Positions 2,114 to 30,377 of a stretch of DNA of 30,377 nucleotides are shown here, in pieces (the first letter of the stretch is position 1; the number at the start of each line of letters is the position of its first letter). The stretch lies in IMG/VR virus record IMGVR_UViG_3300022554_000033; one strand, given 5' to 3'. This stretch comes from a virus. The notes under the pieces are model-generated. The model was not told where the DNA came from. It was given only the letters and a program-made list of their open reading frames with translations, and made no database searches. Position numbers and translations under genes: made by a program.

Positions 2114-2407
2114 TTAATCTGATTCTGGGATTAGATTTAAAACAATCCCGCCGATTGCCTGCATCTCGTCCAGCAGCGCGGGGATATTTTTGCAGCCGAA
2201 TGGTCCTAGATTTCTACTTAGTATGGAACACATCGCAGCGTCATCGGAGATCCCACGTGTATCGATCACCGGGCAATTTACATGCGGCATCTCGCGGTGC
2301 TGAGTAAGCGCTGTTATGCGTTTGCGCCCGGCAATGATCGCCCAGCTGTCACCGTTGAAAAACGCCACTTGCGCGTTATTGATGATCTCTTCATCGATCA
2401 GTAACAT
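2114..2407 (-). CDS. Hypothetical protein, 97 aa; weak ParB/Srx-like N-terminal domain resemblance
   Basis: The start MLLIDEE at 2407 is supported by SD AGGAG 7 nt upstream and a 10-nt overlap with the HicA-like stop. SWAIIAGRKRITAL loosely resembles the ParB-type (D)G-x-x-R-x-x-A motif. Confidence 0.6.
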   Translation of the reverse strand: MLLIDEEIINNAQVAFFNGDSWAIIAGRKRITALTQHREMPHVNCPVIDTRGISDDAAMCSILSRNLGPFGCKNIPALLDEMQAIGGIVLNLIPESD

Positions 2408-2640
2408 AGGATTGCTCCTACGATAGTTACCGCTAACCCGATGCTGATAAAAATCTTTATGATCTTGCAACGTAAGCCCTTGCCCAGGTCACCCGGATGT
2501 ACTGGCACCACACACGAGCCTTTGCTCGTGCTCACGATAAAGTGCGACCCCTTGCCATTGCGCACAGTTGCCCCATGTTTTAGTGCGTGGTGTAAAAAAT
2601 CATCGCCGTTGCGGCAAGCGTCAAGCCGATTCTTGCTCAT
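2398..2640 (-). CDS. hicA: HicA-like (YcfA family) toxin-domain protein with hydrophobic C-terminal tail
   Basis: FLHHALKHGATVRNGKGSHFIVSTSKGSCVVPVHPGDLGKGLRCKIIKIF matches the HicA pattern (L-x-x-G-x5-GSH...vP-x-H...dL..G....I.K). SD GAGGAG lies 7 nt upstream. The last 16 aa (ISIGLAVTIVGAILCY) are hydrophobic. Confidence 0.7.
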   Translation of the reverse strand: MSKNRLDACRNGDDFLHHALKHGATVRNGKGSHFIVSTSKGSCVVPVHPGDLGKGLRCKIIKIFISIGLAVTIVGAILCY

Positions 2641-2773
2641 CGCTTGTCTCCTCGTGAAAGCCGCCCGCCATCTCCCCGCCTACGTCTTCGGTAAAACGCT
2701 GGATCAAGTCCAGCAATGCTTCCGCCTGGTCGCGGGTCATAAAAACTGTGAAGTCAAAAGAATACTCAGTCAT
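2621..2773 (-). CDS. Small acidic ORF (50 aa), translationally coupled upstream of the HicA-like gene
   Basis: Translation is MTEYSFDFTVFMTRDQAEALLDLIQRFTEDVGGEMAGGFHEETSDEQESA. Its start overlaps the preceding micro-ORF stop (ATGACTGA) and its stop lies 20 nt inside the HicA-like gene. It is below the ORF-track cutoff. Confidence 0.45.
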   Translation of the reverse strand: MTEYSFDFTVFMTRDQAEALLDLIQRFTEDVGGEMAGGFHEETSDEQESA

Positions 2774-2849
2774 TTCGCCCCCAGTCCAGTGCCAGCATCA
2801 ACAGGCTCAGCGCCAGGATGAATACGCCAGATGCGATCCACTCAACCAT
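2766..2849 (-). CDS. Micro-ORF (27 aa) predicted single TM peptide
   Basis: Translation is MVEWIASGVFILALSLLMLALDWGRND. Both ends overlap their neighbours by 8 nt (ATGGTTGA and ATGACTGA). The SD is weak. Confidence 0.3.
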   Translation of the reverse strand: MVEWIASGVFILALSLLMLALDWGRND

Positions 2850-3068: not shown

Positions 3069-3097
3069 ATTATATATCGTTATTGTTAGTTTGTCAA
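3069..3097 (-). promoter_or_regulatory. Early leftward promoter, perfect sigma70/sigmaA consensus
   Basis: The minus strand reads TTGACA-aactaacaataacgata-TATAAT, with a 17-nt spacer counted. It points into the RHH gene. Confidence 0.8.
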
Positions 3098-3102
3098 TGG
3101 CT

Positions 3103-3119
3103 GGCAACAAAATGTCACC
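3103..3119. promoter_or_regulatory. Operator O2, GGCAAC-N5-GTCACC (2 mismatches to O1)
   Basis: Same 6-5-6 geometry as O1. It is immediately upstream of the -35 of the leftward promoter. Confidence 0.5.
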
Positions 3120-3135
3120 CATTGGCTTTTCGGTT

Positions 3136-3152
3136 TGTGACAAACTATCGCC
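3136..3152. promoter_or_regulatory. Operator O3, TGTGAC-N5-ATCGCC (3 mismatches to O1); overlaps palindrome GTTTGT-G-ACAAAC
   Basis: Same 6-5-6 geometry. It is 33 bp centre to centre from O2 and just upstream of the repressor SD. Confidence 0.4.
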
Positions 3153-3166
3153 AGGAGAAAAACGGC

Positions 3167-3565
3167 ATGTTCTCAGAATGGCTTCAAAGGGAGATCAATC
3201 AACGTGGGTGGTCCCAATCAGATTTAGCGCGAAAAGCAGGGATAAAACGTCAAGTAGTTAATCGATACATTAATCAAGAACGATTAACCCCAGATAAAGA
3301 AATTCTCATAGCCATTGCCCGCGCCCTCGACTATCCCCCCGAGGTCGTCCTGCGCGCCGCCGGTATCCTCCCCACTCTCCCCGATTGGCGCTCCGCCGCC
3401 GAAGAAATCCTAGGCTACAAGCTTACTGAGCTCAGTAACTCGCAGATCGAAGAGCTGCTCCAGTATGTCGAGTTTATCCAAAATCGCGACGAGCGTAATC
3501 TCGACCGCCGCACCAGCTACAAAAAACGGGAGGGGGAAACCCCTCCCGAAACGGTTAAGAAATAG
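3167..3565 (+). CDS. XRE-family helix-turn-helix repressor (CI-like), 132 aa
   Basis: GWSQSDLARKAGIKRQVVNRYINQER is a classic XRE HTH. The ATG at 3167 is preceded by AGGAG (3153..3157). It is divergent from the RHH gene across an operator-rich region. Confidence 0.85.
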   Translation: MFSEWLQREINQRGWSQSDLARKAGIKRQVVNRYINQERLTPDKEILIAIARALDYPPEVVLRAAGILPTLPDWRSAAEEILGYKLTELSNSQIEELLQYVEFIQNRDERNLDRRTSYKKREGETPPETVKK

Positions 3566-3588
3566 AACAATTATTCTAAGACGATAAA

Positions 3589-3924
3589 ATGAAACGGTTT
3601 TTTCTAGATCAAGAAGAACTAAATAAAGTTAAGCAAATACGCTTAGCTGGCGACTTAGATCGAGCCGAGAAGATTCTTCTACAGGCCGAGCAGACTCCGG
3701 CTACTTGTGATGAGCTTCGCAAAATTGCATCTATACGCGCGCATGAAGCAAAAAAACAGGGTGATTGGATGAAAGTTATAAACGTCCTTGAAGCATATAA
3801 TCAGCACGCTGCTCGCTGGAAATTGCATTGTTTACATATTGTGAATCAAGAGCCGCCGGAACATACAAAAACAGATCAACGTTTGCTGCATGAAGCAAAA
3901 ACAACATTAAACAACAATAGGTGA
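3589..3924 (+). CDS. Hypothetical protein, 111 aa, AT-rich orphan downstream of the repressor
   Basis: ORF co-oriented with the repressor. No SD and no recognisable motif. Hand-counted 60-nt lines at 3601 and 3781 give 33% and 40% G+C, against 62% at 3361. Confidence 0.55.
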   Translation: MKRFFLDQEELNKVKQIRLAGDLDRAEKILLQAEQTPATCDELRKIASIRAHEAKKQGDWMKVINVLEAYNQHAARWKLHCLHIVNQEPPEHTKTDQRLLHEAKTTLNNNR

Positions 3925-4171: not shown

Positions 4172-5125
4172 ATGCTATTATCCGAAGCCCTGGACGGCTA
4201 CTACCTTAGCCACATTGCTGATGGCTATAGCCCACTGACCATGACAACATATCTATCAGCTCTGCGAATTCTGAGTGGCTTTCTACACGATCCCAATATA
4301 TCAGAAATATCTGAAACAGACTTAAAACGCTTCTTCGGTCACCTGCGCACAAGCTATGCTCCGGAGCATTCTGATAGCGGTCAACTCTCCACGGCTTCCC
4401 TGCATCGCTATTGGAAGGCTATTCGATCTTTTTTCAAGTGGGCAGATGCCAGTTTTGGAGTTGGTCGTCCTGATGCTGCCTTCAAAATGCCTCGTTATGC
4501 AAACAAAGAAATTATCCCCTATTCTGAAAACGACGTTCAAAGACTACTGACCGCTTGCCGGCAATCCCGTCCTATTGCAAAAGCAGGTAAGCGAGAATAT
4601 CATTTCCGGCCTAATACTGCAGAACGAAATATAGCTATATTGCTTTTGTTCTTGGATACCGGCTTGCGCCCAGGAGAGCTTGCTAGGCTCAAAATCGGCG
4701 ATATTGATTTATCCAGCGGAGAAATTCAGGTCAAGCCCTACAGGAGTGGTAAAACTCGTCCCCGTATTGTGATTGCCTCAGCAAAAACCCGCAAAGCCAT
4801 CTGGCGCTACCAGGCTACACGAGGAGAATGTGAAGTGAATCAGCCCGCTTTTTTGACCAATGATGGCTGTGAAATGACTCGTCATACCCTGGGCAGCCTG
4901 GTGGCTAATCTGGGGCGGCGCGCTGGCGTGCCCAATGCTAATCCATATCGTTTTCGTCACACATTTGCTATCGAATATCTTCGCAATGGCGGGGATGTCT
5001 TTACTCTCCAGCGTCTATTGGGTCATGCAACTCTGGAGATGTGCCGCGTCTATCTGCGCCTTGCCCAAACAGATGTGGCGACTGCCCACCGCCGCGCCTC
5101 GCCGGTAGACCGCTGGCGGGTGTGA
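4172..5125 (+). CDS. int: Tyrosine recombinase / phage integrase
   Basis: LDTGLRPGELARL (Arg I), RFRHTFA (H-x-x-R) and LLGHATLEMCRVYLRL (His and catalytic Tyr). There is an N-terminal SAM-like core-binding region. SD GGAGG lies 10 nt upstream. Confidence 0.95.
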   Translation: MLLSEALDGYYLSHIADGYSPLTMTTYLSALRILSGFLHDPNISEISETDLKRFFGHLRTSYAPEHSDSGQLSTASLHRYWKAIRSFFKWADASFGVGRPDAAFKMPRYANKEIIPYSENDVQRLLTACRQSRPIAKAGKREYHFRPNTAERNIAILLLFLDTGLRPGELARLKIGDIDLSSGEIQVKPYRSGKTRPRIVIASAKTRKAIWRYQATRGECEVNQPAFLTNDGCEMTRHTLGSLVANLGRRAGVPNANPYRFRHTFAIEYLRNGGDVFTLQRLLGHATLEMCRVYLRLAQTDVATAHRRASPVDRWRV

Positions 5126-5633: not shown

Positions 5634-6725
5634 CTAACCTAATACTCTGAAATTTCCACTTATATCCAATCCGTTTTCGTCAATCTTGATTTCAACTCGG
5701 GTTACCAGGACATTAAATGAGCTCCCCTGATACTCAACAATCACTACATCACCCAATCCCCACTCGATACCATAACGGATTGAGTCACTGTTACGCAGTG
5801 TTCCGTTAAGCTTAACCTGTGGCTTCCCTGCATTCAGCGCCGAATATGCTTTTGCCTGCACTCCTGTAGTGCTTTTTTCGTTGCGCGCATCGGTAAAAGT
5901 TTCGCGCCGATTCCATGGGCTGCTTTTGACCCTGCTCACATCTTGCACCTCTACAATCACGCGGTTGCTGCCTTCCCCTTGCCCGCCGGCATAGATATAG
6001 TTCACTTCATTGCTCCAATCGTATTCCAGCGATGGATTATCCAGATTCCCCCATGATTTACCGAAATATACTTCTCTGCCGCTCCCTGCTCCACGATCGT
6101 TGCTTGGTTGCCCGGTATAAGTCATAAAAACATAACTGGCACTCGATTGCAAGCTCGGCTGTAAATTGAAAAATAACCGCGTCCCGTTTTCCTCGCTCAC
6201 CGCGCAGATATCCAGCAATACTTGCATTAATGGTCGCCATGCAAATCCCTTTTCGATGATGGGCGCGTCGCTTAAATTCGCTCCTACGCTTAATCCGAGA
6301 GAACTCAAATTGCGCCCGGCGCTGGCGTCGCTGCCCAGATTATCCCTCACAATTTCTTTTAAGAGATCATCCGCGTAGCCACTCATGCTTGCCTGGCTGC
6401 TGTCTGCCGCATACGCAATGATGCGCCCGGTTAGCAAGTATTCCGGCGTGTAACAGGTGATCTTGACTCGTTCCTGCTCGTTTGCGTCATAATATAAAAT
6501 TTTCCGAATAAAACCAACTGTTTCCAATCTGGCTGACCCGCCGGTTGGAATATAGTCTATTTCAATAACTCGATCCAGCGCTAGAAAGTTTCGGTCAATC
6601 GTTGCCGCCGCGTCAATTGTAAATACCCCTACGCCGTTAACCACCCTGACAATGTGAAGACTGGTGAAATCCTCCAGCAGCTTGTCGCGCACCCCGAGTG
6701 GGCTGCACAACCAGATTTCAAACAT
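5634..6725 (-). CDS. Tail tip / minor tail protein (Tal- or Gp37-like)
   Basis: Position is directly after Dit. The N-terminus MFEIWLCSPLG... and the C-terminal YGIEWGLGDVVIV pattern resemble siphovirus Gp37-like tail proteins. The ATG at 6725 has GGGAG 8 nt upstream; the track start at 6740 is also possible. Confidence 0.55.
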   Translation of the reverse strand: MFEIWLCSPLGVRDKLLEDFTSLHIVRVVNGVGVFTIDAAATIDRNFLALDRVIEIDYIPTGGSARLETVGFIRKILYYDANEQERVKITCYTPEYLLTGRIIAYAADSSQASMSGYADDLLKEIVRDNLGSDASAGRNLSSLGLSVGANLSDAPIIEKGFAWRPLMQVLLDICAVSEENGTRLFFNLQPSLQSSASYVFMTYTGQPSNDRGAGSGREVYFGKSWGNLDNPSLEYDWSNEVNYIYAGGQGEGSNRVIVEVQDVSRVKSSPWNRRETFTDARNEKSTTGVQAKAYSALNAGKPQVKLNGTLRNSDSIRYGIEWGLGDVVIVEYQGSSFNVLVTRVEIKIDENGLDISGNFRVLG

Positions 6726-6726
6726 G

Positions 6727-9156
6727 TTACGCGCTCCCATCGATGCTCTCGTAGCGGTTAACCCATTGCAGGTAGGCTGTTATCGTTGGTGAACCGCTTT
6801 GTTGGACATAGAGACTCAAAAGATTGTCACCTGGCAGCAAGTAAAATTCTGCAAACTCACTGCCGCGTAGAACCTTATTCCAGATATTCCCGTAAATTGA
6901 TGAAAGCACTTTGCGTTTACCCTCGCTAAAATCAACGATTACGACTTCACTATCTTGCAGCGCTAGGTCAAACCATAGGGTAGCTCCAGTTGTTTCGTTC
7001 TTTAAAAACACCAGTTTTGCTGACGTCCCGCCCGAACGCTTGATCACCAGGCGCGGGTGTACCCGCGCCGTTCCTGTATTTGTATACAGGTCTGTCTTGC
7101 TGTATGTTGCTGTCCCACTGGTGCCAAAACCGATAAATATGTCACCCCGATACGTTGCGAGTCCAGTCCCGATCGGAGTTCCTGGCAATGTGATGTCCAG
7201 GTTTACCCAGCTGGAACCATTCCACGCCGCCAGCCGGCTTGCCGTTGCTAGTCCACCTGCCGACGTGAAATTACCACTGGCATACAGTACCCCATTTTGG
7301 TCAAAAGCCAGGTTGTAACAATCGCCGCCGCTCAAACCACTCCCCAGCGGGGTGAATGTTTGCCCATTCCAGCGGGCAATTTTACTGCATGATACGCCGT
7401 CAGCAGTTGTAAACTGCCCTCCAACATACACGTCTCCGTTTGGCGCAACGACAATGGGCATGCCCTGTCCATTGAGACCGGTCCCTAGCCCAGTGTAGGT
7501 AGATCCATTCCACTTGCAAATACGTGTCAATCCAATAGTTGTAAAACCGCCTGTCAGATATATGTCACCGTTTGGCGCCAGCGCCATCCCCAGCACCGGT
7601 CCATTTAGCGTGGAGCTTAATGATTGCCAGGCGGAACCGGTCCACCTGGCGAAATAATTGACCGTCACTCCGCCCGCCGTCGTGAATTCCCCGCCGACGT
7701 ATAAATATCCATCTTGACCAAACACCATGCAGCGTCCTGCAAGATTTAATCCTGTTCCCAGGGCGCTCCAGTTTGAGCCATTCCACACAGCGATCCGATT
7801 TGCCGAAACGCCGCCTGCGGTGGTAAACTCTCCACACGCGTAAACCTTGCCGTCCGCGCCAATGACAATGTCTTGCACCAAGCCGTTCATCCCAGAGCCG
7901 GCCGCGTACCATCGGTTATCATCAAAATCATAGTAGGCAATGTAATCCGCGTTCGCATCGCCGTTCCAGTTCAAGAACGACCCACCTACCCAGATCTGTT
8001 TCGGGTAGGAGAAACCCACATTGCTGCCAGATGGAACATTCTTATACGTAATAGCAATCGCCAAGACCGAGATCCCAGTCCCCGGGTTGGTCACTGCACT
8101 GGGCGTTATGCCGCTATTCCACATCTTATCTATCTTGGCTGCCAGGTATCTCAGGGTTGCACTGTCCTGTGTGATTAGGGAAAGAGCACTATCTGCTGTA
8201 TCATAAAAATAGGGATCGTACGCCGTCAGGCTTAATGCAATGTCTTGCCATGTCGGTATCAATAGCTTGCTGATTTCTCTGTCCACCACACAGCGCAGCT
8301 CAACCTCATTATTTCCGCCGTTGTAACGCAACGCCAGTGGTTCATCTCCCGGTGTCAGGTCATGCTTGACCGCATTAATCAAAACCGACCGCCGGCTGTG
8401 CTGCTCAGATTGCGATGATGCCAGCGCTCCCATGCTCAGTAAGAGAGAGCGCGGTACTGCACGCGCCCCCAAATACTCAGCTCCCGGAAGCAACGATCTC
8501 TGGCTCACCTGATGTTTTGATTCAACCATGCCCGCGCCGCTCACTTCTTTGACAAAAATGTTTAGGTTATCTAGATTGACTACTTGTCCTATCCTGCGGG
8601 CTTCCGGCTCGGTTGTTGATGTCGATCTGTGCGAAGTGCCGTCCCAGTGACAATGCTCGCTGTCGCCATCGAAATAAGTCACGTCATACGCCGAGTTTAC
8701 ACACAGTAACCCATCCACATAAAAGGGTGCCGTAGACGCCGAATTGTTTTTTGTGATATACAGACGATTGTTAATGCTCGTCAATCCGGGAGTGTATTGC
8801 ACGGAGTGACGTTCCCAGTTACCGGTCGCAACAAATTCTTTGGCTGTGCCTTGTAATGTTCCTGATGAGTTGGCGAAGTATATCCTGTAAGGCACACCAG
8901 CCTGACCTTTAATGTCCACACTGAAAACATATGGCTGGTCGCCGACAAATGCAATTGGACTGTAATAGACGCCGTCATATGCTCCGCTTGTCGGCGTCAC
9001 GGTTAAACTATATGCGCCGCGCCTGGCAGTACCGATCACTCGCGCAATACTCGCTCCCACAGCTGTGTAATTGAGCGTGCTCGCCTCCACGCTGGGATTC
9101 ACCACCAGGTTGGTGATCGCTTTACTATCCGGTACAACAATGCTCCATAATCCCAT
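6727..9156 (-). CDS. Elaborated distal tail protein (Dit) with N-terminal CBM-like module and inserted six-bladed beta-propeller
   Basis: It is immediately downstream of the tape measure gene. The C-terminal 115 aa (TARVHPRLVIKRSGG...LKNETTGATLWFD...VIVDFSEG...FYLLPGDNLL) fit the Sipho_tail/Dit C-terminal pattern. Residues 389-678 are six repeats of about 47 aa (GGxFTxAGG...IAxWNGxxWxxLGxGLNG...GxxYVGG). Residues 1-165 look like a galactose-binding-like CBM. Confidence 0.7.
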   Translation of the reverse strand: MGLWSIVVPDSKAITNLVVNPSVEASTLNYTAVGASIARVIGTARRGAYSLTVTPTSGAYDGVYYSPIAFVGDQPYVFSVDIKGQAGVPYRIYFANSSGTLQGTAKEFVATGNWERHSVQYTPGLTSINNRLYITKNNSASTAPFYVDGLLCVNSAYDVTYFDGDSEHCHWDGTSHRSTSTTEPEARRIGQVVNLDNLNIFVKEVSGAGMVESKHQVSQRSLLPGAEYLGARAVPRSLLLSMGALASSQSEQHSRRSVLINAVKHDLTPGDEPLALRYNGGNNEVELRCVVDREISKLLIPTWQDIALSLTAYDPYFYDTADSALSLITQDSATLRYLAAKIDKMWNSGITPSAVTNPGTGISVLAIAITYKNVPSGSNVGFSYPKQIWVGGSFLNWNGDANADYIAYYDFDDNRWYAAGSGMNGLVQDIVIGADGKVYACGEFTTAGGVSANRIAVWNGSNWSALGTGLNLAGRCMVFGQDGYLYVGGEFTTAGGVTVNYFARWTGSAWQSLSSTLNGPVLGMALAPNGDIYLTGGFTTIGLTRICKWNGSTYTGLGTGLNGQGMPIVVAPNGDVYVGGQFTTADGVSCSKIARWNGQTFTPLGSGLSGGDCYNLAFDQNGVLYASGNFTSAGGLATASRLAAWNGSSWVNLDITLPGTPIGTGLATYRGDIFIGFGTSGTATYSKTDLYTNTGTARVHPRLVIKRSGGTSAKLVFLKNETTGATLWFDLALQDSEVVIVDFSEGKRKVLSSIYGNIWNKVLRGSEFAEFYLLPGDNLLSLYVQQSGSPTITAYLQWVNRYESIDGSA

Positions 9157-17362: not shown

Positions 17363-18555
17363 GCTTGACTTTGCCCATCGTTTTTGGTATCATAAAAGTG
17401 GTTCTGGGGTAGGATGTCGTCTCCTACATCCTCGAGAGAGGTCAAGATGCCGACGTGACGCACGGTGGACGGGACCATAAGCCGGGTTTTCCCGGCTTTT
17501 TTCGTGCCGATCCAGCGCTGCCTGAGCTGTCCACTCTCATCATATAAATATCTCTCACCCGCTCGGAATATGTTGTAAATCGCATGCAGTTGATTGCTCC
17601 GCCTGGAGTCTCTCAATTGAATAACTACCACAAGATAGGGTGGCTCTCCCTCTCTATGCGCCACAGATACAACGTGCGCCATCGTCAAGCCGCTTTTCAG
17701 CGAGCGAGGTGTCATTTCAATAAAATCGGGTCGCTCAATGGCTTTCCTCACCATTGATAGACGAGTATTGATCCAGCGAAAGTCTTCAGGATGTTCTCGC
17801 GCAATATACCGTACCTGTCCAGGCAAAACCCGCACATCATTTACCTGAAATGCTTCTCCCTTCAAATCAGGCAAAATATCCCCATACTGAAACGAGTTGA
17901 CTCCCAGCTCGTATGCTTTGTCTTCTTTAGGATTAAATGCCGGAATCGTTAACACCACCGGCTGTAAATAACACCTGCACCGCACATGCGCTGGCGGCGC
18001 GCTTATCCCATCAAATCCAGTCTCGTCATCCAGGGCAACTTCCATACCGTCTAATGGCGCGCATATCTCACACACCAGCTCATCTTCGCCGGTCATCCAC
18101 CGTTTGCCTTCGACTATCCCGCTTTCTCGCCAAGTCGCCAGATTGCCCTCAGCAAATGCCCGCGTTGTCTCAGTAACGCCTATCATCTCCGCCCGCACCG
18201 GTCCCCACATTGGCTCCAGCTTTTTGAGCAACACAGGCAATGGCTCACCGCTCCCGATCCACTCACTTAACTCCTGCTGCAAAAAATTCTTGCTGGTCTC
18301 TGTAATGCCCTTCACCAAGTCATAAGTGTATTCTTCCGCCCATTTTTTCACCGCCTCATTCACCAGCCGCCAGTCAACGCCAATACCGATCTCTTCCAAA
18401 TCTGTTAGCGCCGACTTTGCGCCCTCTACTGCTGCTTTGCCAATCAACGGCGTTAGCAGCTCAAACAAACGCTCCCGTTCGTCCTCCCAAAACGATGTGT
18501 CCGGGAAACGTTTCGTGTTCACACCAAACAATAACTCAGCAACGCTAAGCGCCAT
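17359..18555 (-). CDS. Head morphogenesis protein, Mu F / SPP1 gp7 family, with about 190-aa extra C-terminal domain
   Basis: VTETTRAFAEGN...CEICAPLDG...PPAHVRCRCYLQP is the MuF signature. Residues 205-398 are an additional domain. Confidence 0.85.
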   Translation of the reverse strand: MALSVAELLFGVNTKRFPDTSFWEDERERLFELLTPLIGKAAVEGAKSALTDLEEIGIGVDWRLVNEAVKKWAEEYTYDLVKGITETSKNFLQQELSEWIGSGEPLPVLLKKLEPMWGPVRAEMIGVTETTRAFAEGNLATWRESGIVEGKRWMTGEDELVCEICAPLDGMEVALDDETGFDGISAPPAHVRCRCYLQPVVLTIPAFNPKEDKAYELGVNSFQYGDILPDLKGEAFQVNDVRVLPGQVRYIAREHPEDFRWINTRLSMVRKAIERPDFIEMTPRSLKSGLTMAHVVSVAHREGEPPYLVVVIQLRDSRRSNQLHAIYNIFRAGERYLYDESGQLRQRWIGTKKAGKTRLMVPSTVRHVGILTSLEDVGDDILPQNHFYDTKNDGQSQA

Positions 18556-19885
18556 CCGCCAGTTCCTTTTTGATTCGTTTGTATTGACCGGTCAAGTAGC
18601 CATCCATCGCCTCGGTGATATCACTCTCTGCAGACCGCCGGCTTTTATACTCAGTCTTACCGTTACTCTTTGCAGACTGCTTGATAGGCACTTCGACAAC
18701 GGCCATCCCGCGCAGATACACATTGCCTGCTTTGCCCTTGTCTGGCAATCCAACTTCATCGCAGAATTCGTTCACTGTGATCGCGCCAGCTTTGAGCGCT
18801 TCAGTCGCCCGGGTCCAGCGCATATTGCGCTCTTCTTGTAATGCGTTCACCCGACTGAAGTCCCATTCTATGCTGATATCATCGCCGAATTCTGTTGCGA
18901 GTTGATTGATAATGACATCCAGGAAGTTAGCGTATAGCGGGATAAGGCTGTCTTCCCACCATGCCCGCCGCGCCTCACCGTAATTTGAGTACGTCGCCCG
19001 GTCTAATCCAATCTTCGCGCCAACCAGAATTGGCGGTATGTCCATCACCATGCAAATGCGCGCTTCGCTGCGTGCATCTAATTCGCCGAAGCCCATCTCG
19101 GCAAACGATAGACCGATCCTCTGATACTCAGCGTCCGAGTCCAACACAGCCGGTTCTAGCCAGTGCTCGAATCCGCCGTATCTCTCTCTCCATCGCCGCC
19201 GAATGTCAGCTACCTGGGTGTCTTGTAGCTTCTGCACGGTTTTTAACAACCCAGGCGGCGCGCCGCCTTTCTCGAAAAACAATCGCACATAATCCGTCAC
19301 CGCGTTATCCACATCTCCTACCCGGGCTGCTACTGCCACAGGCGGCCAGCCATTGTAGAAATTGATCGGATCAAATAGCTTGAAATCCAACACATCCTCA
19401 GGCAGCAACGTTTGCGGCGACATTCCCGGCGGTGCATATTCGTACCCGCCAATCATAGATTGCGAGCTAGCTAGTGGTTTTACCCAATCTGGGCGCAACG
19501 GCCAAAGCTGCACCACCTGCCCTGCCCGGCTACGTACTTTTTCAAAGATCGCCCTGCCAGCTAATTTTTGATAAATAATCACCGCTGACCAAAAGTCATA
19601 TTCACTCATAAACGGGTTCGGCTTCTGAATAAGACTTTTAAGTGGGTGTTCTGGTAATTCATTCCCATCGCGCCGCGAATAAACCTTTAGCTCCACTTGA
19701 GATGCCGTATTGGCTGCCTTATTGATACACGAAAATATCAGCTCGTTCTTGCGCCATCCATGACGCACCATGCTTTCGAAGTTAATCTCCGAATAGCTCG
19801 GCTGTCCCTCTTTCCAAGTTTCAACCAAAGTTGCCAATGCCTTCTCACGCCTGCCGGTCAGCCTATCCAAAAATCGCCTAAACAT
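18545..19885 (-). CDS. Portal protein (HK97-type family)
   Basis: FSCINKAANTASQVELKVY...HPLKSLIQKPNPFMSEYDFW matches the portal pattern. The ATG at 19885 (MFRRFLD) follows a G-rich SD and overlaps the terminase stop (ATGTTTAG). The track start at 19954 lies deep inside terL. Confidence 0.9.
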   Translation of the reverse strand: MFRRFLDRLTGRREKALATLVETWKEGQPSYSEINFESMVRHGWRKNELIFSCINKAANTASQVELKVYSRRDGNELPEHPLKSLIQKPNPFMSEYDFWSAVIIYQKLAGRAIFEKVRSRAGQVVQLWPLRPDWVKPLASSQSMIGGYEYAPPGMSPQTLLPEDVLDFKLFDPINFYNGWPPVAVAARVGDVDNAVTDYVRLFFEKGGAPPGLLKTVQKLQDTQVADIRRRWRERYGGFEHWLEPAVLDSDAEYQRIGLSFAEMGFGELDARSEARICMVMDIPPILVGAKIGLDRATYSNYGEARRAWWEDSLIPLYANFLDVIINQLATEFGDDISIEWDFSRVNALQEERNMRWTRATEALKAGAITVNEFCDEVGLPDKGKAGNVYLRGMAVVEVPIKQSAKSNGKTEYKSRRSAESDITEAMDGYLTGQYKRIKKELADGA

Positions 19886-21380
19886 GGATACCCCCCATCG
19901 CTGACCCATTCCGCAGATCGTTCCAGCTCCAAAATGCTGCATCAACCAGGTCAAATGGTTTAGTCAACGGGAACCGCCTGAGCGCACGCTCTAAAATCAG
20001 ATGTGTTCCATTTACATGCACAATTTTGCCCCGCTCATAGTCTGCCAGCATTTGCAGATTGCGCTCCACCTTGGGGCCATAGCCAGCCCCTGCTTTGTCC
20101 CATACCATTAGCGGCAACCAGGTCAGCTCGGGACGATCCTGCCGGATCTGCTCACACACCCGGTAATATACACTCTGCCAGGTATCCCCGCCCTGGTCAG
20201 TCTCAATCCCCACGTGATCGAACTGCAACTCGACTGCCTTGAGAATTGCCCTCTTTAGCGCGTCCTCCGGGCTGGTCACCTGCTCCCACGAGAACAAACG
20301 ATAGATGATCCCATCTTCGCCCAATCCATCCGCCTGAATCCCTTGGCTGTCGCTCTGGTCAGTGCTGGTTACTGCCGGATCAACCCACACACAACCCCGT
20401 ATGAGCACAGGCAGATCACTCCACTCACAATGCTGAAACTCAATATGATCCCAGATCCCACCTGGCGGTACATCTACCTCGTGCTGCGCCTCTTGCAGAA
20501 ACGATGTCAATCCCCAGGTTGTCATCTGTCCCTGGCATATTTCGAGATTCTGCCCTTCCCAAGTCGCCTTGCCAGCCGTAATCACAAACTGCCCACCTCG
20601 CTGCTCATACTCTAATCCTTCCACCGCCGGATACGGTCCGCTGACAATCCGATCAGCGAGCATCTCTGCCCGCCCGTCAACCAGCTGCGCCGCGATGCTG
20701 TTGGGGTGTATGAGGTTTTGAATAAACAGCACTGCACAATCCACACTGCCGGCAGGCAGAAGCGAGGTTGATATTGTTTCGACTTTCTTGCGAGTCGTTG
20801 CCAGGCTATCAAAACGCTCGTCCACGTCATCGAAAATGATCAGGTCTGGGCGCTGGTGCTCCACCTTTGCGCCACGGCTGCCCACATCCAAGCCCAGAGC
20901 ATCTATCGTCAATCCGCTGGCGGTCCGCAGTCGCTCCCGCCGCCAGCCTTTCGACGCCCCATACTTGCCAATCTTGCGTGATGCCAGGAGCGGGTGATAA
21001 CGTTCCAATTGCTTGCTTTCCAACATTGCCCCAATAGTCTCTACGTGCTTGTCGGCCTTCTCCTGAGTGGCAGAGACATACCAGATGTATTTGCGGCTTC
21101 CTTTAGCTCCCACTCGCACACAAGCCAGCTCAGCACTGGATGATTTTGCTCCACCTCTCGGCCAGATTGCCACCAGTGGGCACGGACGCACACCACGCTG
21201 TATTCCCTCTACCCACTCCCAAAACAACACGTGTCTATCGGCAAATGGCGCGCTGATATACGCCGGGTAGATAGCTTTCAGCCAACCCTGCCAGCTCTCT
21301 GGCGCCAACAGGGTCTTAGTCCCCAGGCGTTTCCTGCGCTCCAGCTCCGCCAACGCTCTGACCTGCACTTGCGAGTACAT
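19878..21380 (-). CDS. terL: Terminase large subunit
   Basis: Walker A-like WPRGGAKSS and Walker B DLIIFDDVDE. The C-terminal nuclease acidic motifs are VWVDPAV and GIETDQGGD. The ATG at 21380 has GGGGAGGA 8 nt upstream. Confidence 0.88.
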   Translation of the reverse strand: MYSQVQVRALAELERRKRLGTKTLLAPESWQGWLKAIYPAYISAPFADRHVLFWEWVEGIQRGVRPCPLVAIWPRGGAKSSSAELACVRVGAKGSRKYIWYVSATQEKADKHVETIGAMLESKQLERYHPLLASRKIGKYGASKGWRRERLRTASGLTIDALGLDVGSRGAKVEHQRPDLIIFDDVDERFDSLATTRKKVETISTSLLPAGSVDCAVLFIQNLIHPNSIAAQLVDGRAEMLADRIVSGPYPAVEGLEYEQRGGQFVITAGKATWEGQNLEICQGQMTTWGLTSFLQEAQHEVDVPPGGIWDHIEFQHCEWSDLPVLIRGCVWVDPAVTSTDQSDSQGIQADGLGEDGIIYRLFSWEQVTSPEDALKRAILKAVELQFDHVGIETDQGGDTWQSVYYRVCEQIRQDRPELTWLPLMVWDKAGAGYGPKVERNLQMLADYERGKIVHVNGTHLILERALRRFPLTKPFDLVDAAFWSWNDLRNGSAMGGIHV

Positions 21381-24759: not shown

Positions 24760-25641
24760 TCAACATTTTATTTGCTCTCGTAAGATCGCAATTGCATCAT
24801 CGTTAGACATACTGTGCAATCTGGCAAATAAATTGATCACATCCAGCGGCTTGGGCGTGCAGCCGGCAAAACAACCGCAAATCTGGCGCTGAGTGTCGAT
24901 CCAAAAACTGGGATGCCTGTCATCATGCAACGGACACGTTGTCAATAGCCAGTGGTCACCAGTGGCAATCGTATTGCCAAAAAAGCTCTCGATTGATAAA
25001 CTTGCCCGGATCTTGTCGATAACACCAGTACCGGGCGGAGCGCTGCGCGGCAACATAGCCAGGAGCCACGGGTCATCAACAGACCGGGCAACAACCGGGT
25101 TAACAACTCCCGCCGGCAAATCCTGATCTGCCAGCACAGCCGCCGGCAACACATCGGAAAGATTAGCGACCAAAGGGAAGTTAAAATGCTCAGTAAGGGG
25201 GGTATAGACAGCCCCGCTCGGGTGGATCGACCCTGCGCCGATCACATAACCCCCGCGGCACTTGATATCAATCTTACCGACGCGCCGGGTACGCTCGGGC
25301 TTGGGAAGACGAATATAAACATGTACACCCCGGGAAGTTACCACTTTATAAGCCATCCAGCTGACCCACTCCGGCGGTCCGGGTTGGCTTCTTGCCCACA
25401 ACAACCATTTAGAGTAATCACTCATATCGTCAAAATCTAAGACGGTTAATCCTTGCCAACCGGTTATAATCCCTATATTGCGTGGCTTCGCGAACCACCA
25501 CCGCAATTCTTGCTCAGTAGGGAGTTGGGATTGATATTGCTGCCATCGCAAGAGCGGTCGCTTGTCACGGTATTTCACCGGGATTACTGCGATCCCCCGG
25601 TGAAGAAAGCTTAGTGCAAGGTTTATTGCGGAATTGGTCAT
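24760..25641 (-). CDS. Bifunctional primase-polymerase (Prim-Pol, AEP) with C-terminal CHC2-type zinc finger
   Basis: GIAVIPVKYRDKRPLL.W...NIGIITG..GLTVLDFDD...RGVHVYI...GGYVIGAGSIHPSG fit the Prim-Pol N-terminal domain. CPLHDDRHPSFWIDTQRQICGCFAGC fits a primase zinc finger. Confidence 0.85.
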   Translation of the reverse strand: MTNSAINLALSFLHRGIAVIPVKYRDKRPLLRWQQYQSQLPTEQELRWWFAKPRNIGIITGWQGLTVLDFDDMSDYSKWLLWARSQPGPPEWVSWMAYKVVTSRGVHVYIRLPKPERTRRVGKIDIKCRGGYVIGAGSIHPSGAVYTPLTEHFNFPLVANLSDVLPAAVLADQDLPAGVVNPVVARSVDDPWLLAMLPRSAPPGTGVIDKIRASLSIESFFGNTIATGDHWLLTTCPLHDDRHPSFWIDTQRQICGCFAGCTPKPLDVINLFARLHSMSNDDAIAILREQIKC

Positions 25642-25659
25642 TGTTGTTCTCTAATATTG

Positions 25660-25754
25660 GTTACAGATGTTACATGTAACATCTATTAAATTACTTTTAC
25701 TGGTAAACTTAATTTAATAGCAGTTACGCGTAACATCTGTAACATCTGTAACAC
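25660..25754. repeat. Palindrome/iteron block: candidate replication origin
   Basis: The block contains a 20-bp perfect palindrome AGATGTTACATGTAACATCT (25665..25684). It has the inverted repeat ATTAAATTA-N16-TAATTTAAT (25685..25718) and the 12-bp palindrome GTTACGCGTAAC (25723..25734). It also has the 9-bp tandem repeat GTAACATCT x2 plus a partial third copy (25730..25754). There are eight GTTAC/GTAAC pentamers in 95 bp. Confidence 0.6.
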
Positions 25755-27212
25755 TCATGGCCCTTTCAATCGTATTCCTGCATAGCCGCGCAGCAAATTC
25801 CTTCCGGTTCTAGCAACAAACGGCTTCCCCAGTCCCAACTTAGTCAGCGCTGCTGCCAATTTGCGCGTATCCAGGTCGAATCCGGTTAGCCCAGCGTTTT
25901 TCAGCTCCGCCAAAATATCGAGCGTCGCCATCCACCACTGGTTATTGCCGGGGTCGATCTCAAATAAACGCTTGATAGTTTCCTCCACCACGTCTACAAT
26001 CTGATATTGTTGGTTGATTTCCTCCGCCTGGTCCCACTCGTGGGGTGTCAGCTCCCAGGGCTCGCCGCTTAAATACAGATCGAACGCTTGCGCCCAAACT
26101 TGGTCAACATCTATCCGAGTGTAAGACCAGTCGATATTCTCCAGGTGCACCACCATGAAACGCCGGTTGCCAGTTGGATCGGATAGTAAACCCCCCTCGT
26201 TGTTCGCCGTGCCGATGAAGCTAGTGATCACCTGCCCGATCAGATCAAATTTCGCGTACGGCTTTCGGTCTCTCACGGTCTGTGTGGTCAAAAACGCTTT
26301 CAGCGCTTCCCGGTCTGCCCGCCGGGTTGTAGAGCCAAACTCGTTCACTTCCCAGATCCACGTCCATAGGCGTCTTAATCTACAATCCTTGTCATCTGGC
26401 GTGATTGCTCCCTCATGGTAGTACTCCGGCATCGGGCTCGCCAGCCACTTCACAAAATGGCTCTTGCCGATGCGCTGCCTGCCATCCAGAACTAATACTC
26501 TATTTTGTTCACCCGCCATCACCCGCGCTACCGCCCCCACCAGCCAGCGCCGCATCCAGGTTGCAAAGACGTTGTGCTCATCCCAAAAACAAGCGCATAA
26601 ATTCCCGATTGGGTCGCCACCGTTAAATTTCAAGCCTGTCAAATAGTCCCGAATCGGATGATAACGGTGCAACCAAGCGGCGCCGGTGTAGGCGTCCTCC
26701 GCCACACCTACTTCCCACACCCCCACGTCGCGCAATTTGCCTCGGATGATCTTTGCCAGACCATCACTCACCGGCACGCCGTTTGCCTCGATCTCGTGGG
26801 TGCATAAGTTGTATTTGAATTCATATCCTAATGACTTCAGCACCTGCATATACTGAGCAGTCTTGCGTTTCTTTCCCGGGCTGGCGGTTTGCAGCCATTG
26901 CCGCAATTCAGCTGCCCGGGTGGTAATTGCCCCCAGCACAGCTGCCTGCGCCGCCGGCGGCAGGTTCTCGATGCTGAGAGCGATAGCATCTTGCACGTTG
27001 CCGCCAATTTGGATAATCTGCTCGTGCATGCTCCGCCATGGTTCTGCCCTCGGCGGCAACAAATTTGGCGGCTCGCCGCTCGCCAGGCAACGTGCAATTT
27101 GCTCCAGCCCATCGATAAATTCCTGCTCTGGCTCATTGGCGTAATATTGTTCCAGGATCTGGGCGTCGCCCGTATTAATCCCGGCATTGAGCAGGGTGCG
27201 TAAGTTCGCCAT
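25755..27212 (-). CDS. VirE-family / D5-like SF3 replicative helicase
   Basis: VLVLDGRQRIGKSHFVKWL (Walker A), WIWEVNEF (Walker B-like) and RKPYAKF...FIGTANNEGGLLSDPTGNRRF match the VirE (PF05272-like) pattern. Confidence 0.88.
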   Translation of the reverse strand: MANLRTLLNAGINTGDAQILEQYYANEPEQEFIDGLEQIARCLASGEPPNLLPPRAEPWRSMHEQIIQIGGNVQDAIALSIENLPPAAQAAVLGAITTRAAELRQWLQTASPGKKRKTAQYMQVLKSLGYEFKYNLCTHEIEANGVPVSDGLAKIIRGKLRDVGVWEVGVAEDAYTGAAWLHRYHPIRDYLTGLKFNGGDPIGNLCACFWDEHNVFATWMRRWLVGAVARVMAGEQNRVLVLDGRQRIGKSHFVKWLASPMPEYYHEGAITPDDKDCRLRRLWTWIWEVNEFGSTTRRADREALKAFLTTQTVRDRKPYAKFDLIGQVITSFIGTANNEGGLLSDPTGNRRFMVVHLENIDWSYTRIDVDQVWAQAFDLYLSGEPWELTPHEWDQAEEINQQYQIVDVVEETIKRLFEIDPGNNQWWMATLDILAELKNAGLTGFDLDTRKLAAALTKLGLGKPFVARTGRNLLRGYAGIRLKGP

Positions 27213-27219
27213 TTAGAGT

Positions 27220-27780
27220 TTATGCGTTCAGTAAAAGCTGCTTGGCTTTATCCAGTAGATTTGTTGCCCGATCTGCCGTCACAATCGCCCCGCCGGCTGC
27301 TTTTGCCAGCCGGGCCAGGAATTCGCGGCCGTGGGGTCTATCTTCCGGACCGACAAAAATCACATGAATCGTATTTTTGTATTGAACAGCGATCCCTAAC
27401 GCATCCGACTCGCTATTTGGCTCGCCATCGGAGATGACAATGAATTTCATCCCTGGCACGTCGGCGATCTTGGCAAATCTAAGCGCCCCGGCTAAATCAG
27501 TACCGCCGCCTAAGTATTGCGGTTTTCCGTTTGGGCAGAAGATGGTTGTATCTGAGAAGGCTAAAACCGCAATTTTCCCTGGCATGTTCTGTTGTAAGCT
27601 CGCTAGCTCCTCGCACGCCACACTATAGCGGGAACGCCCGTTGCGGGAATCTTCTGCCGCCATGCTGCCGCTCGTGTCAACGATGACGATTACATCGCAG
27701 GACAGGAATGTTTCCGCGATGCTCTTGCCCGTGTTTTGGGCAATTGATCCAAGTGATCCGGGGATGATTGCATTGTTCAT
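27220..27780 (-). CDS. von Willebrand factor A (vWA) domain protein with complete MIDAS, 186 aa
   Basis: VIVIVDTSGSM (D-x-S-x-S), GGGTDL (Thr) and VISDGEP (Asp). The ATG at 27780 overlaps the upstream stop (ATGA). The 71-aa N-terminal extension in the track is Arg/Ser-rich junk overlapping the previous gene. Confidence 0.85.
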   Translation of the reverse strand: MNNAIIPGSLGSIAQNTGKSIAETFLSCDVIVIVDTSGSMAAEDSRNGRSRYSVACEELASLQQNMPGKIAVLAFSDTTIFCPNGKPQYLGGGTDLAGALRFAKIADVPGMKFIVISDGEPNSESDALGIAVQYKNTIHVIFVGPEDRPHGREFLARLAKAAGGAIVTADRATNLLDKAKQLLLNA

Positions 27781-27968
27781 CGCACACAGTATTCCTTCCT
27801 CGCGCCGCAATACACGCACACGTACACTTCCCATCGTCCGTACTCGATCAACTGGTGGGCTGTACTCTTGCCGCACCGGTCGCAATACATCCGGTAGTAG
27901 TCGATCTTGCGCTTCCTGGCTACTGCTTGTCTCACCATTTCGATGAATTGCACGCTTTCTTTGCTCAT
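27777..27968 (-). CDS. Zinc-ribbon protein, 63 aa
   Basis: CDRC-x17-CVYC. There are ATGA overlaps at both ends (27965..27968 and 27777..27780). Confidence 0.65.
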   Translation of the reverse strand: MSKESVQFIEMVRQAVARKRKIDYYRMYCDRCGKSTAHQLIEYGRWEVYVCVYCGARKEYCVR

Positions 27969-28813
27969 ACCCATCTCTCCGTAAATGTGTCATTGCCTGG
28001 CTGCCAGCTTGTTACTAAGACCTGTCCCCGGCTATTAACGATATCCTCCCACGCCAGGATTTTTTGTGTGATAAAACGTCCTACCTGGTCAATTCCCTCC
28101 GCCATGATATACCCACAACGCAATGGCGAGCGATACCCGCCAGGAGTCAAGTCCATTGTTTGCCAATCAACTTTCCTCTTCATCGTGGCTTCCAGCGCCA
28201 ACCCGGCATCGTAACGGGCGCGCTTGTCTGCGTTGCTCAGGATCTCGTAGGCTTCTTGGATACGCATAAAGATCTCGACTGCGTTCTTTTCCTTGCAATA
28301 GTCGGGGTGCCATTGCTTCGCCATCCGGCGATAAGCGCGTTTGATCCCCTCGTCGTCGGCGTTCTGCGATGCGCATAACACCCCATATAACGATTGCGCC
28401 GGAGGTCTTTCGTTTTCTTGCACAACGCCATCGAACCACGATCGTAGCACTAGCTCCGGAAAGACAACTGACCATTCGCCGTTGCAATATCCGTAGGCGC
28501 TCCACCCGTCATCTCGCCATTTAGTAATGCCAATATAGCGCACGTCCAGTACACGAGTGTCAACAACTGGGGTTGTCACAATTTGCGGCGCTAATATGGC
28601 AACCCCGATATACTCAGCCACCCAGTTTGTCAGCGTCTGCCCATGCCGGGGATGCACCAGCCATCGCTTGCCATTCGGATCCCAGCGTCGTTCGGCTTGC
28701 GGCAGCGCTTTGATTTTCGCCGTCAAGCTTGGCTCATAGCTGCATGTCAGCGCCAGGGTGCCATTTTCGATAGTCAGCCGCGCGAATGGCGTGTGCTTGC
28801 TGTACCTAGTCAT
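27965..28813 (-). CDS. J-domain (DnaJ-like) protein with N-terminal HARP-like motif, 282 aa
   Basis: Residues 141-202, SLYGVLCASQNADDEGIKRAYRRMAKQWHPDYCKEKNAVEIFMRIQEAYEILSNADKRARYD, form a canonical J domain with HPD. The N-terminal SYEPSLTAKIKALPQAERRWDPNGKRWLV resembles the SMARCAL1-type HARP motif. The ATG at 28813 has SD AGAGGTAAG. Confidence 0.85.
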   Translation of the reverse strand: MTRYSKHTPFARLTIENGTLALTCSYEPSLTAKIKALPQAERRWDPNGKRWLVHPRHGQTLTNWVAEYIGVAILAPQIVTTPVVDTRVLDVRYIGITKWRDDGWSAYGYCNGEWSVVFPELVLRSWFDGVVQENERPPAQSLYGVLCASQNADDEGIKRAYRRMAKQWHPDYCKEKNAVEIFMRIQEAYEILSNADKRARYDAGLALEATMKRKVDWQTMDLTPGGYRSPLRCGYIMAEGIDQVGRFITQKILAWEDIVNSRGQVLVTSWQPGNDTFTERWV

Positions 28814-29570
28814 ACTTACCTCTACACTGCCCCCAAAAATCACAATAAGCTGGGCTGCACTTCCAGGTTGTGGGATTCTCAGGATAGACATTTCTGGATA
28901 TCGCTTCCCACACATGCCGGATCATCCCGAACAGCCACATCACCTGTCCTGGTGTATGCTTATGCTCGAATATGTCTATCTTGGGCTGTTTTGTCTTCAC
29001 AATCACATAATGCCTGAAAGTCCATTCGTGATTATGCTCACCTAACTGGTTTAGCGCGGCTAAGTAAAATAGCGGCTGCGTTTCGCCGGTCGCTCGGTCA
29101 GCAGACCACGACTTGGCGGATGTTTTGAAGTCCCCCGGCACACCCGCTAGGTCAATCATGTCAATATACCCAATCACCGGCACAGGCACCCCCGGCACGC
29201 GCAGCTCTACTTTGCGCTCGATCTCAGTTGCTTGTAATTCACTTAGGGCATCGCAGATCGCCCTGTCGCTCAGTATGCGAACGCCCTCGTTGAAATGTTG
29301 TTCCGGGGTGTCTGTGCCCCACACTATCTGCTCGCCCTCTAGAGCCTGGTTCCAGGCTCTTCCCCAAATACTGAGCAAATCCTCCTGAGTCATAATATTC
29401 TCTTCGATGGTCTGGTGCATTGCCTTGCCGAAAATCAGGTCGGGCGTTGAATAGGTCGGGATTTTTTCCACATACTTAAAGCGCCAGCTCGCTGGGCATG
29501 TCAGATAAGTTGTTATGCTCGAGTAAGACAAATGCTCGATCAGTGATATGTTTGATTGAGTGGCGCTCAT
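28806..29570 (-). CDS. Cas4-like / RecB-family PD-(D/E)xK exonuclease
   Basis: LSYSSITTYLTCPASWRFKYV (N-terminal Cys), GYIDMID...GDFKTSAK (D...D/E-x-K) and C-terminal CSPAYCDFWGQC (three Cys) fit a Cas4-type Fe-S nuclease layout. Confidence 0.85.
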   Translation of the reverse strand: MSATQSNISLIEHLSYSSITTYLTCPASWRFKYVEKIPTYSTPDLIFGKAMHQTIEENIMTQEDLLSIWGRAWNQALEGEQIVWGTDTPEQHFNEGVRILSDRAICDALSELQATEIERKVELRVPGVPVPVIGYIDMIDLAGVPGDFKTSAKSWSADRATGETQPLFYLAALNQLGEHNHEWTFRHYVIVKTKQPKIDIFEHKHTPGQVMWLFGMIRHVWEAISRNVYPENPTTWKCSPAYCDFWGQCRGKYD

Positions 29571-29571: not shown

Positions 29572-30377
29572 TCATATTCTTCTACTTTCTAACACGCTCA
29601 AGATCTGCAGTACTTCTTCGTCCGTCGCTGGGATCTTTCCCCCGTTTGCGTTCATGATCACCTCGGCGTCGTAGGACTCCAGCAGTATTGCCAGTAGGTC
29701 ATGGTTAGTTTGTGTTTCTGGCTTTTGTACTGGAATTTCTGGTATGGACTCTGTTCCCGAAGTCAGCCATTCAATCACCGGCAGCATGAATTCCGGACCA
29801 GGCTTTTCGATCTTGAGATCGGCTACTGCTGGACAGCGGCTTTTAGAGACTGTCATAATGTGCGACCAGTCGATGTCACATACCAGGTCGAATTCGTACT
29901 CTACGCCGGGCCTCTGCACTGGCGCCATGCCCACCCGCCGTACCACGGTTTTGCCTTGCTCGTTGATTTCTTGAACATACTCCATCCGGCTGCGCATGGT
30001 AGTGATGACGTGGCATGGCGATTGCAGGATACTGTCCACCATACGGTTATGGATTGGAGTCACCGTTCTCCATGCAGTGTAATTGTTGCCTGGCGCCCGG
30101 TCTTTGATCTCCAACGCCCCTCCAACGCCTTCCCATGCGTGCGAGAGCGAATCGATCACCAATACCGCGTAACCCATACGTCCCGCCGCCAGCACTGCCT
30201 CGGTGTATCGCTCTGGTGAAAATGTGGTGAGCTCAAGTACATCAAATTCCCAGGGGATTCCATCGACAATTTCCCCTGCATATTTAGATGCACTGCCTCT
30301 TTCTGTGTCGATCACGGCGATCCTGCCGCCGTTTACCAGCGCGTGGGCGAAGCGCAGCGCCGTATAGGTCTTTCCCG
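29572..30377 (-). CDS. Sak4-like (AAA_24) recombination ATPase; 5' end continues at 1..191 after the circular junction
   Basis: Walker B VLVIDSLSHAW, with the AAA_24-like C-terminal half. The ORF is open to the window end. The full gene is 870 nt in the 30250-bp circle when started at the ATG equivalent to position 191. Confidence 0.85.
   Translation of the reverse strand, partial: GKTYTALRFAHALVNGGRIAVIDTERGSASKYAGEIVDGIPWEFDVLELTTFSPERYTEAVLAAGRMGYAVLVIDSLSHAWEGVGGALEIKDRAPGNNYTAWRTVTPIHNRMVDSILQSPCHVITTMRSRMEYVQEINEQGKTVVRRVGMAPVQRPGVEYEFDLVCDIDWSHIMTVSKSRCPAVADLKIEKPGPEFMLPVIEWLTSGTESIPEIPVQKPETQTNHDLLAILLESYDAEVIMNANGGKIPATDEEVLQILSVLESRRI
30251..30377. repeat. Terminal direct repeat, copy 2 (identical to 1..127)
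   Basis: Exact match, checked block by block. Confidence 0.97.

Follow-up and report, generated by a model that had tools for sequence, protein, structure and literature searches.

A repeat block behind a VapE-like helicase gene as the probable replication origin of a temperate Chloroflexota phage

Introduction

Where does DNA replication start in the temperate phages and prophages of Chloroflexota? The question is raised by a conspicuous intergenic stretch in the IMG/VR virus record IMGVR_UViG_3300022554_000033, a sequence of 30,377 nucleotides which was analysed at its full length (the window; all coordinates are positions in it). Here, a short gap crowded with palindromes and repeats separates the gene of a VapE-like helicase of superfamily 3 (SF3) from that of a primase-polymerase (Prim-Pol), both located on the minus strand. 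A first-pass annotation made from the sequence had proposed this gap as an origin of replication, with an operator for the Prim-Pol gene as the alternative. To our knowledge, nothing is known of the replication biology of this phage and prophage family. The analysis described here indicates that the block at 25660-25754 is probably the replication origin of the phage, of the Rep/iteron type known from Staphylococcus aureus pathogenicity islands (SaPIs); this reading is derived from the sequence and from the analogy to these islands.

The Rep proteins of SaPIs are initiator-helicases of SF3 or superfamily 6 (SF6) that load themselves onto the DNA and bind iterons by a C-terminal winged helix (Qiao et al. 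2022, PMC9371898). The SaPI origin is situated immediately 3' of rep and comprises 6-12 iterons with an AT-rich centre and at least two opposed iterons on each side, the primase gene being adjacent; papillomavirus E1 is a structural parallel of Rep1 (PMC9371898).

Results and discussion

Architecture of the repeat block

All elements that had been listed by the first-pass annotation (a 20-bp palindrome, an inverted repeat, a 12-bp palindrome and tandem repeats) were recovered at the places where it had put them, and the length of the gap was confirmed, too (Table 1). It understated the block, having missed a dyad which extends over the whole block, a third palindrome and the tandem arrangement on the Prim-Pol side. 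Two opposed sets of GTAAC(ATCT)-type repeats flank a centre with a GC content of 18%. Three GTAAC/GTTAC cores are found on the Prim-Pol side and four on the helicase side, mirrored around the centre, and a degenerate pair is located in the centre itself. Because the degenerate central TTTACTGGTAAA adds a third one, the block contains three palindromic TTAC-NN-GTAA sites with a spacing of 27 bp (GTTACATGTAAC, TTTACTGGTAAA and GTTACGCGTAAC). The repeats next to the Prim-Pol gene are likewise arranged in tandem (GTTACAGATGTTAC), and their last GTTAC half-site is 18 nt away from the Prim-Pol start codon. The outer 15 nt of the 84-bp near-dyad pair perfectly.

The 20-bp palindrome is the longest of the window, but taken alone it is only modestly unusual: palindromes of at least 20 bp occurred in 13 of 300 dinucleotide shuffles, in agreement with the chance expectation of about 0.03 given before. 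For the cluster of repeats in its entirety, chance can be dismissed. Seven GTAAC/GTTAC half-sites were counted within 93 bp where 0.10 would be expected (P = 2.5e-11, about 8e-9 after correction for position). The search for further repeat copies, which the first-pass annotation had recommended, yielded four exact copies of GTAACATCT in the 30-kb window, every one of them within the gap, and the gap is the sole place of the window where an 8-mer is repeated four times inside 300 bp. Both exact GTTAC-NN-GTAAC sites found in a search of the whole window are situated in the gap as well; with one mismatch allowed, there are three such sites in the window compared to 0.32 expected from shuffles. 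Furthermore, the 100 bp with the lowest GC content of the window (0.27 vs 0.52 overall) coincide with the gap.

A copy of the palindrome with one mismatch, GTTACCGCTAAC, is located at 2426-2437, with GTAACAT 19 nt upstream (2401-2407), at the junction of two open reading frames (ORFs), one on the minus strand (2114..2470) and one on the plus strand (2441..2821). The same protein could have a weak secondary site here; alternatively, the copy is a chance occurrence, since the window is expected to contain 0.32 sites of this kind.

Table 1. Positions of the repeat block, its parts and the two flanking genes in the window of 30,377 nt.
Feature	Position	Strand	Description
VapE-like SF3 initiator-helicase gene (485 aa)	25755..27212	-	PF05272; proposed origin-binding, self-loading helicase
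Helicase stop codon	25755-25757	-	TGA on the minus strand
Gap between both genes (113 bp)	25642-25754
Helicase-proximal iteron set	25723..25754		palindrome GTTACGCGTAAC plus tandem repeats; directed away from the centre
Tandem repeats	25730-25754		GTAACATCT GTAACATCT GTAACAC; 9-bp period, touching the helicase stop codon
12-bp palindrome	25723-25734		GTTACGCGTAAC
AT-rich centre	25685..25722		GC 0.18; inverted repeat plus degenerate central palindrome; proposed melting region
Inverted repeat	25685-25693 and 25710-25718		ATTAAATTA, 16 nt, TAATTTAAT
Degenerate central palindrome	25696-25707		TTTACTGGTAAA
Prim-Pol-proximal iteron set	25660..25684		tandem plus 20-bp palindrome; mirror of the helicase-proximal set
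20-bp perfect palindrome	25665-25684		AGATGTTACATGTAACATCT
Tandem repeats, Prim-Pol side	25660-25673		GTTAC AGATGTTAC
Near-dyad of the whole block	25660..25743		two 41-nt arms (25660-25700 and 25703-25743), 85% complementary, 2 nt between
Prim-Pol gene with C-terminal CHC2 (DnaG-type) zinc ribbon (293 aa)	24760..25641	-	PF09250, PF01807; proposed primase at the opened origin

The adjacent helicase and primase

The product of the helicase gene contains the Pfam domain VapE-like_dom (E = 6e-40). When the profile of this helicase family was compared to solved structures, the sole strong match was 7PDS, the complex of SaPI1 Rep1 with DNA (E = 5.8e-29). The structure predicted by AlphaFold2 (AF2; predicted local distance difference test score, pLDDT, 87.8) shows at the C-terminus, at residues ~408-482, the order helix-strand-helix-helix-strand-strand (H-S-H-H-S-S), which is the topology of a winged helix. 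7PDS was also the best Foldseek match of this model (E = 9e-17, about 445 aligned columns compared to a chain of 454 residues) and ranked above the SF3 helicases of NrS-1, African swine fever virus (ASFV) and poxviruses (D5/E5). Both matches make the VapE-like protein a homologue of SaPI1 Rep1 over its full length, i.e. an SF3 helicase with a predicted C-terminal winged helix. The Prim-Pol protein combines PF09250 (E = 5.8e-24) with the zinc ribbon Zn_ribbon_DnaG (E = 3.8e-07).

The experimentally defined origin of SaPI1 shares layout and position with the block described here, supporting the origin proposed by the first-pass annotation. The block begins at the stop codon of a gene for a Rep-type SF3 helicase. 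Its seven cores plus the degenerate central pair, among them four exact 9-mers, are within the range of iteron numbers of SaPIs, and with three and four opposed cores the AT-rich centre is flanked on each side by more than the two required there. A C-terminal winged helix is indicated by the AF2 prediction together with the alignment to 7PDS over nearly the whole chain. Finally, the repeats seem to be specific for the element and matched to its own Rep, for which the evidence is computational and modest (see below).

Conservation of the block in relatives

In the reference phage sets no close relatives were detected, since a megablast search of INPHARED gave no match and a peptide-pattern scan of IMG/VR was empty; tblastn against the reference phage sets resulted in identities of at most 31.5% among the matches listed. 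Hundreds of relatives were found in metagenomes and metagenome-assembled genomes. The genome matches point to Chloroflexota (Anaerolineae, Caldilineaceae), among them a prophage of the cultured Ornatilinea apprima P3M-1 (locus L084, on NZ_LGCL01000045.1, about 170.8 kb). Prim-Pol comes after the helicase gene in 44 loci. About 30 distinct relatives with helicases 38-58% identical to that of the window exhibit gaps of 118-423 bp, in all of which an AT-rich spacer is surrounded by arrays of repeats 8-11 bp long. These arrays are either bipartite as in the window (>>> AT <<<) or tripartite (>>>> << >>>), and motifs of the TTAAT type are enriched in the equivalent spacers. The repeat sequence itself varies from phage to phage, e.g. 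GGTTGGACA, GGTTGGAAC, GGTTGTAAC, GGTTGGTAA, GGTTGACC, CTGAGTAC, GGTGACA and TGTAACAGA, besides others. Relatives possessing both genes but lacking the repeats, which according to the first-pass annotation would speak against an origin, are thus the opposite of what was found: the block is kept with the same architecture and other repeat sequences.

For an unbiased view, the 300-bp stretch richest in a repeated 7-mer was determined in each fetched locus. In the 63 non-redundant VapE loci that were 6 kb or longer and had a clear cluster (five copies or more), this peak was located at the 3' end of VapE in 41 and directly before Prim-Pol in another 5 loci. The resulting 46 of 63 compare to a chance of about 4.5% per locus. 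Even for helicases of Clostridia, Rhodobacterales and Bacteroidota, which are only 26-35% identical, the position at the VapE 3' end holds. The gene following the block differs between loci (Prim-Pol, a DnaG-type primase with CHC2 and Toprim, an SNF2 helicase, an exonuclease or unknowns), and in loci with Prim-Pol upstream the block is still found 3' of the helicase gene. As the next gene varies and the helicase is followed even in the latter case, the block belongs with the helicase gene and not with any one downstream gene.

Some relatives (L020, L025-L033, L043 and L026) carry one to several ORFs of about 80 amino acids, some of them rich in cysteine pairs, between the helicase stop codon and the block. 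Due to these insertions the block is 0.5-3.4 kb away from the helicase gene in these loci, yet directly 5' of Prim-Pol.

The cassette of VapE helicase, repeat block and primase recurs with non-homologous primases (L094, L106 and L148 compared to the window and L048). The primase is a Prim-Pol with a CHC2 or PriCT_2 C-terminus in some loci and a DnaG-type protein with CHC2 and Toprim in others. Dense clusters of short repeats unrelated to the origin block were observed, too: ACCTGAG occurs 14 times at 1-300 of L014 and ACCTGCG 10 times at 3200-3560 of L072, 5' of the helicase gene.

Which protein reads the repeats

The divergence of the repeats was compared to that of the two neighbouring proteins in 27 non-redundant loci containing both genes, using the 62 C-terminal residues of the helicase and controlling for its ATPase domain. 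Repeat divergence follows the C-terminal domain of the helicase (partial Mantel r = 0.24, p = 0.003), whereas the partial correlations with the catalytic and zinc-ribbon parts of Prim-Pol are negative (r = -0.17 and -0.23). Pfam detected no domain for binding duplex DNA in Prim-Pol. On account of both results Prim-Pol was dismissed as reader of the repeats. In a set of 58 loci, the C-terminal domain gave r = 0.18 (p = 0.0015) and the ATPase domain r = 0.13.

In the group with GGTTGG-type repeats, a single residue of the wing, preceding the VWGY motif, tracks positions 7-9 of the repeat. Proline goes along with AAC (L010, L036 and L099; e.g. GGTTGGAAC) and arginine with AC(A/G) in five loci (e.g. 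GGTTGGAC(A/G)), while lysine or leucine was found with TA(A/C), phenylalanine with ATA and glutamine with CAT. This covariation is suggestive, if modest, of a repeat that is matched to its own helicase.

Alternative explanations

Several observations weigh against an origin of the SaPI type at this place. The gene order is rep-ori-pri here but pri-rep-ori in SaPI. The relatives with inserted small ORFs keep the block at Prim-Pol and not at the helicase stop codon, as a promoter or operator would do, too. The Mantel signal is modest and explained in part by shared ancestry, since the repeats diverge in correlation with the ATPase domain as well. The window comprises 30.4 kb, several related contigs 36-42 kb, and a second origin may be situated outside of the window. 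A switch in GC skew, suggested by the first-pass annotation as a check, was not seen in the window; the skew is negative throughout and uninformative for this genome because the genes lie almost exclusively on one strand.

The block might instead serve only as operator or promoter of Prim-Pol and the genes following it, with a regulator, possibly the helicase, controlling a middle promoter with a TATTTAAT-like -10 box. We consider this improbable, although the block ends just 18 nt before the Prim-Pol start codon and stays directly 5' of Prim-Pol where small ORFs are inserted. The relatives frequently exhibit a (G-run)TAT(T)TTAAT element, often (G-run)TATTTAAT, 0-8 nt upstream of the Prim-Pol-proximal array, and a TTAAT-type element lies within 17 nt of this array in 16 of 32 loci compared to 3.7 in shuffles. 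However, the motif is mirrored on the opposite side in bipartite origins and present in 32% of the spacer windows. As it is mirrored and frequent in other parts of these spacers, it lacks a clear direction, and its frequency of 50% near the array compared to 32% elsewhere is weak evidence for a positionally fixed -10 box, which was therefore not accepted. No sigma-70-like promoter with -35 and -10 hexamers 16-18 nt apart was detected on either strand of 25642-25754 in a scan that did not include promoter types of Chloroflexota phages and hence is not a strong exclusion. Moreover, the block is located at the VapE 3' end in more distant families regardless of the next gene, even with Prim-Pol upstream, and 6-12 repeats in opposed sets about an AT-rich core are the documented layout of a Rep1-type origin. 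What stands of the operator suggested by the first-pass annotation is the vicinity of the block to the Prim-Pol start; as this is kept in the relatives with inserted ORFs, the block may have an additional regulatory role for the primase gene beside its role as origin.

A single strand of the block folds into a hairpin of 84 nt (-23.7 kcal/mol, z = -7.7, none of 200 shuffles as stable), so that the functional unit could be a hairpin or cruciform, acting either in RNA processing, attenuation or termination or as a DNA cruciform or single-strand signal read by the primase. The centre of the window's block (25685..25722) folded as single-stranded DNA with z = -2.7, and central spacers of bipartite relatives are dyad-symmetric with other sequences (z = -5.1 in L036, -3.7 in L091 and -3.3 in L086). 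For the archaeal plasmid pRN1, an essential stretch of 166 bp downstream of the primase-helicase gene is reported (PMC4234260). Against this, no T-run follows the stem and no intrinsic terminator was called in the gap, and the matches to Rfam were all below threshold (the best with 29.7 bits compared to a gathering score of 80) and concerned models of miRNA precursors, i.e. generic long hairpins. Tripartite relatives lack a hairpin of the whole gap and their spacers fold like shuffles (z about 0), for which reason the hairpin was discarded as a conserved feature; head-to-tail repeats with a period of 9-11 bp would not be explained by it either. In sum, a hairpin as the functional unit seems very unlikely. 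Still more remote is another DNA transaction, with the repeats forming a pac/cos packaging site, a partition centromere or arm sites of the integrase. Such sites consist of clustered short repeats as well, and the phage is temperate. However, the integrase and repressor genes are about 20 kb away from the block, which argues against attP arm sites; no partition gene was present in 20 ORFs at the window ends screened with Pfam, a screen which did not cover the middle of the window, where the terminase is expected; and across many unrelated elements the block accompanies the VapE helicase gene. Finally, DnaA boxes with up to one mismatch are absent from the gap and scattered elsewhere in the window without clustering. 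An origin of the iteron-plasmid or lambda type is not indicated, with no DnaA box in the gap and no RepA- or O-type initiator among the screened genes of the replication module.

Proposed mechanism

Provided that the block is the replication origin, the predicted winged helix of the VapE-like protein would bind the GTAAC repeats, and one helicase hexamer would assemble on either side of the centre. The region of ATTAAATTA...TAATTTAAT with its 18% GC would melt, whereupon the two helicases could load themselves and travel apart in 3'->5' direction. The Prim-Pol/zinc-ribbon protein encoded by the adjacent gene might then prime the exposed strands for a host polymerase. Expression of the primase gene may in addition be tuned by occupancy of the repeats on the Prim-Pol side. 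A more far-reaching version, which we put forward tentatively and do not expect to hold in full, regards the block as an origin and at the same time as a switch gating transcription of the primase gene by occupancy, with a simple code linking one or a few wing residues to repeat positions 7-9 across the family and a cassette that has repeatedly been rebuilt with non-homologous primases. If so, the supply of primase would be coupled to the occupancy of the origin.

Phage context and significance

The window contains a lysogeny module on the plus strand with a helix-turn-helix repressor of the Cro/CI type (HTH_3, 3083-3565) and a tyrosine integrase (4172-5125). Together with a Sipho_Gp37-like protein (5634-6740) this characterizes the element as a temperate siphovirus; the minus strand encodes an ERCC4-domain nuclease at 184-942. 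A perfect 16-bp palindrome, TTACTGAGCTCAGTAA, is located inside the HTH gene (3423-3438), and just after it, at the end of this gene (3536-3663), lies the sole other stretch with a 100-bp GC content of 0.32 or lower (minimum 0.28). This part of the window may regulate the lysogeny switch. Another perfect palindrome of 16 bp, the GC-only AGGCGGCGCGCCGCCT, was found at 19253-19268 inside a long minus-strand ORF (18545..19954), at a distance of 37 nt from the sole 9-mer of the window that matches a DnaA box exactly (19305-19313).

Directly 5' of the helicase gene are genes encoding a protein with a VWA domain (27220-27993) and one with a DnaJ (J) domain (27965-28915); next come those of a PD-(D/E)XK nuclease (28806-29570) and of an ATPase of the AAA_24 type (29572-30315). 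With its gene beside that of a proposed self-loading helicase, the J-domain protein might recruit the Hsp70 of the host to remodel replication complexes.

The data provide a well-supported origin annotation for uncultivated temperate phages and prophages of Chloroflexota (Anaerolineae, Caldilineaceae), and would carry the Rep/iteron paradigm of SaPIs from staphylococcal satellites to complete phages of a distant phylum. For annotation, the practical rule is that the 3' end of a VapE-family helicase gene is the place to look for a cluster of repeats. The most useful by-product is the comparative set of cognate helicase/repeat pairs: dozens of them represent natural specificity variants for dissecting how self-loading SF3 helicases read their origins.

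Comparison with known systems

In iteron plasmids (RepA/pi/TrfA) and in lambda (O/ori), direct repeats beside an AT-rich unwinding element are bound by the element's own initiator, and binding to inverted copies results in autoregulation. These initiators are not helicases themselves and have to recruit the DnaB of the host, and many of them need DnaA boxes. The lambda iterons lie within the O gene, whereas the block described here is intergenic. The large T antigen of simian virus 40 (SV40) and papillomavirus E1 are SF3 helicases acting as initiators, with palindromic half-sites next to AT-rich DNA and a proposed loading as double hexamer. Their hosts are eukaryotes, and their origin-binding domain has another fold and precedes the helicase domain, while the one predicted here is C-terminal; the DNA sites have no sequence relationship.

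The alpha protein of satellite phage P4 is a primase-helicase of the D5/SF3 lineage, the octamer iterons of which are read by a C-terminal DNA-binding domain. P4 depends on two repeat regions lying apart, ori and crr, and combines primase and helicase in one fused protein; the phage of this study exhibits one block in 30 kb and separate genes for primase and helicase.

The closest resemblance is to SaPI1, with a homologous SF3 helicase carrying a predicted C-terminal winged helix and the putative origin directly 3' of the helicase gene. Two opposed sets of short, element-specific repeats about an AT-rich centre and the adjacent primase gene are shared with SaPIs, too. Instead of the penta- or hexanucleotide iterons of SaPIs, the block has a 9-bp unit with a GTAAC core, the inner copies being perfect palindromes, and the primase possesses a DnaG-type zinc ribbon. 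Furthermore, SaPIs are satellite islands, whereas the element studied here is a complete temperate siphovirus of Chloroflexota. The proposed mechanism is not new; what sets the probable origin apart from those of SaPIs is the order of the genes, the repeat unit and the phylum of the host.

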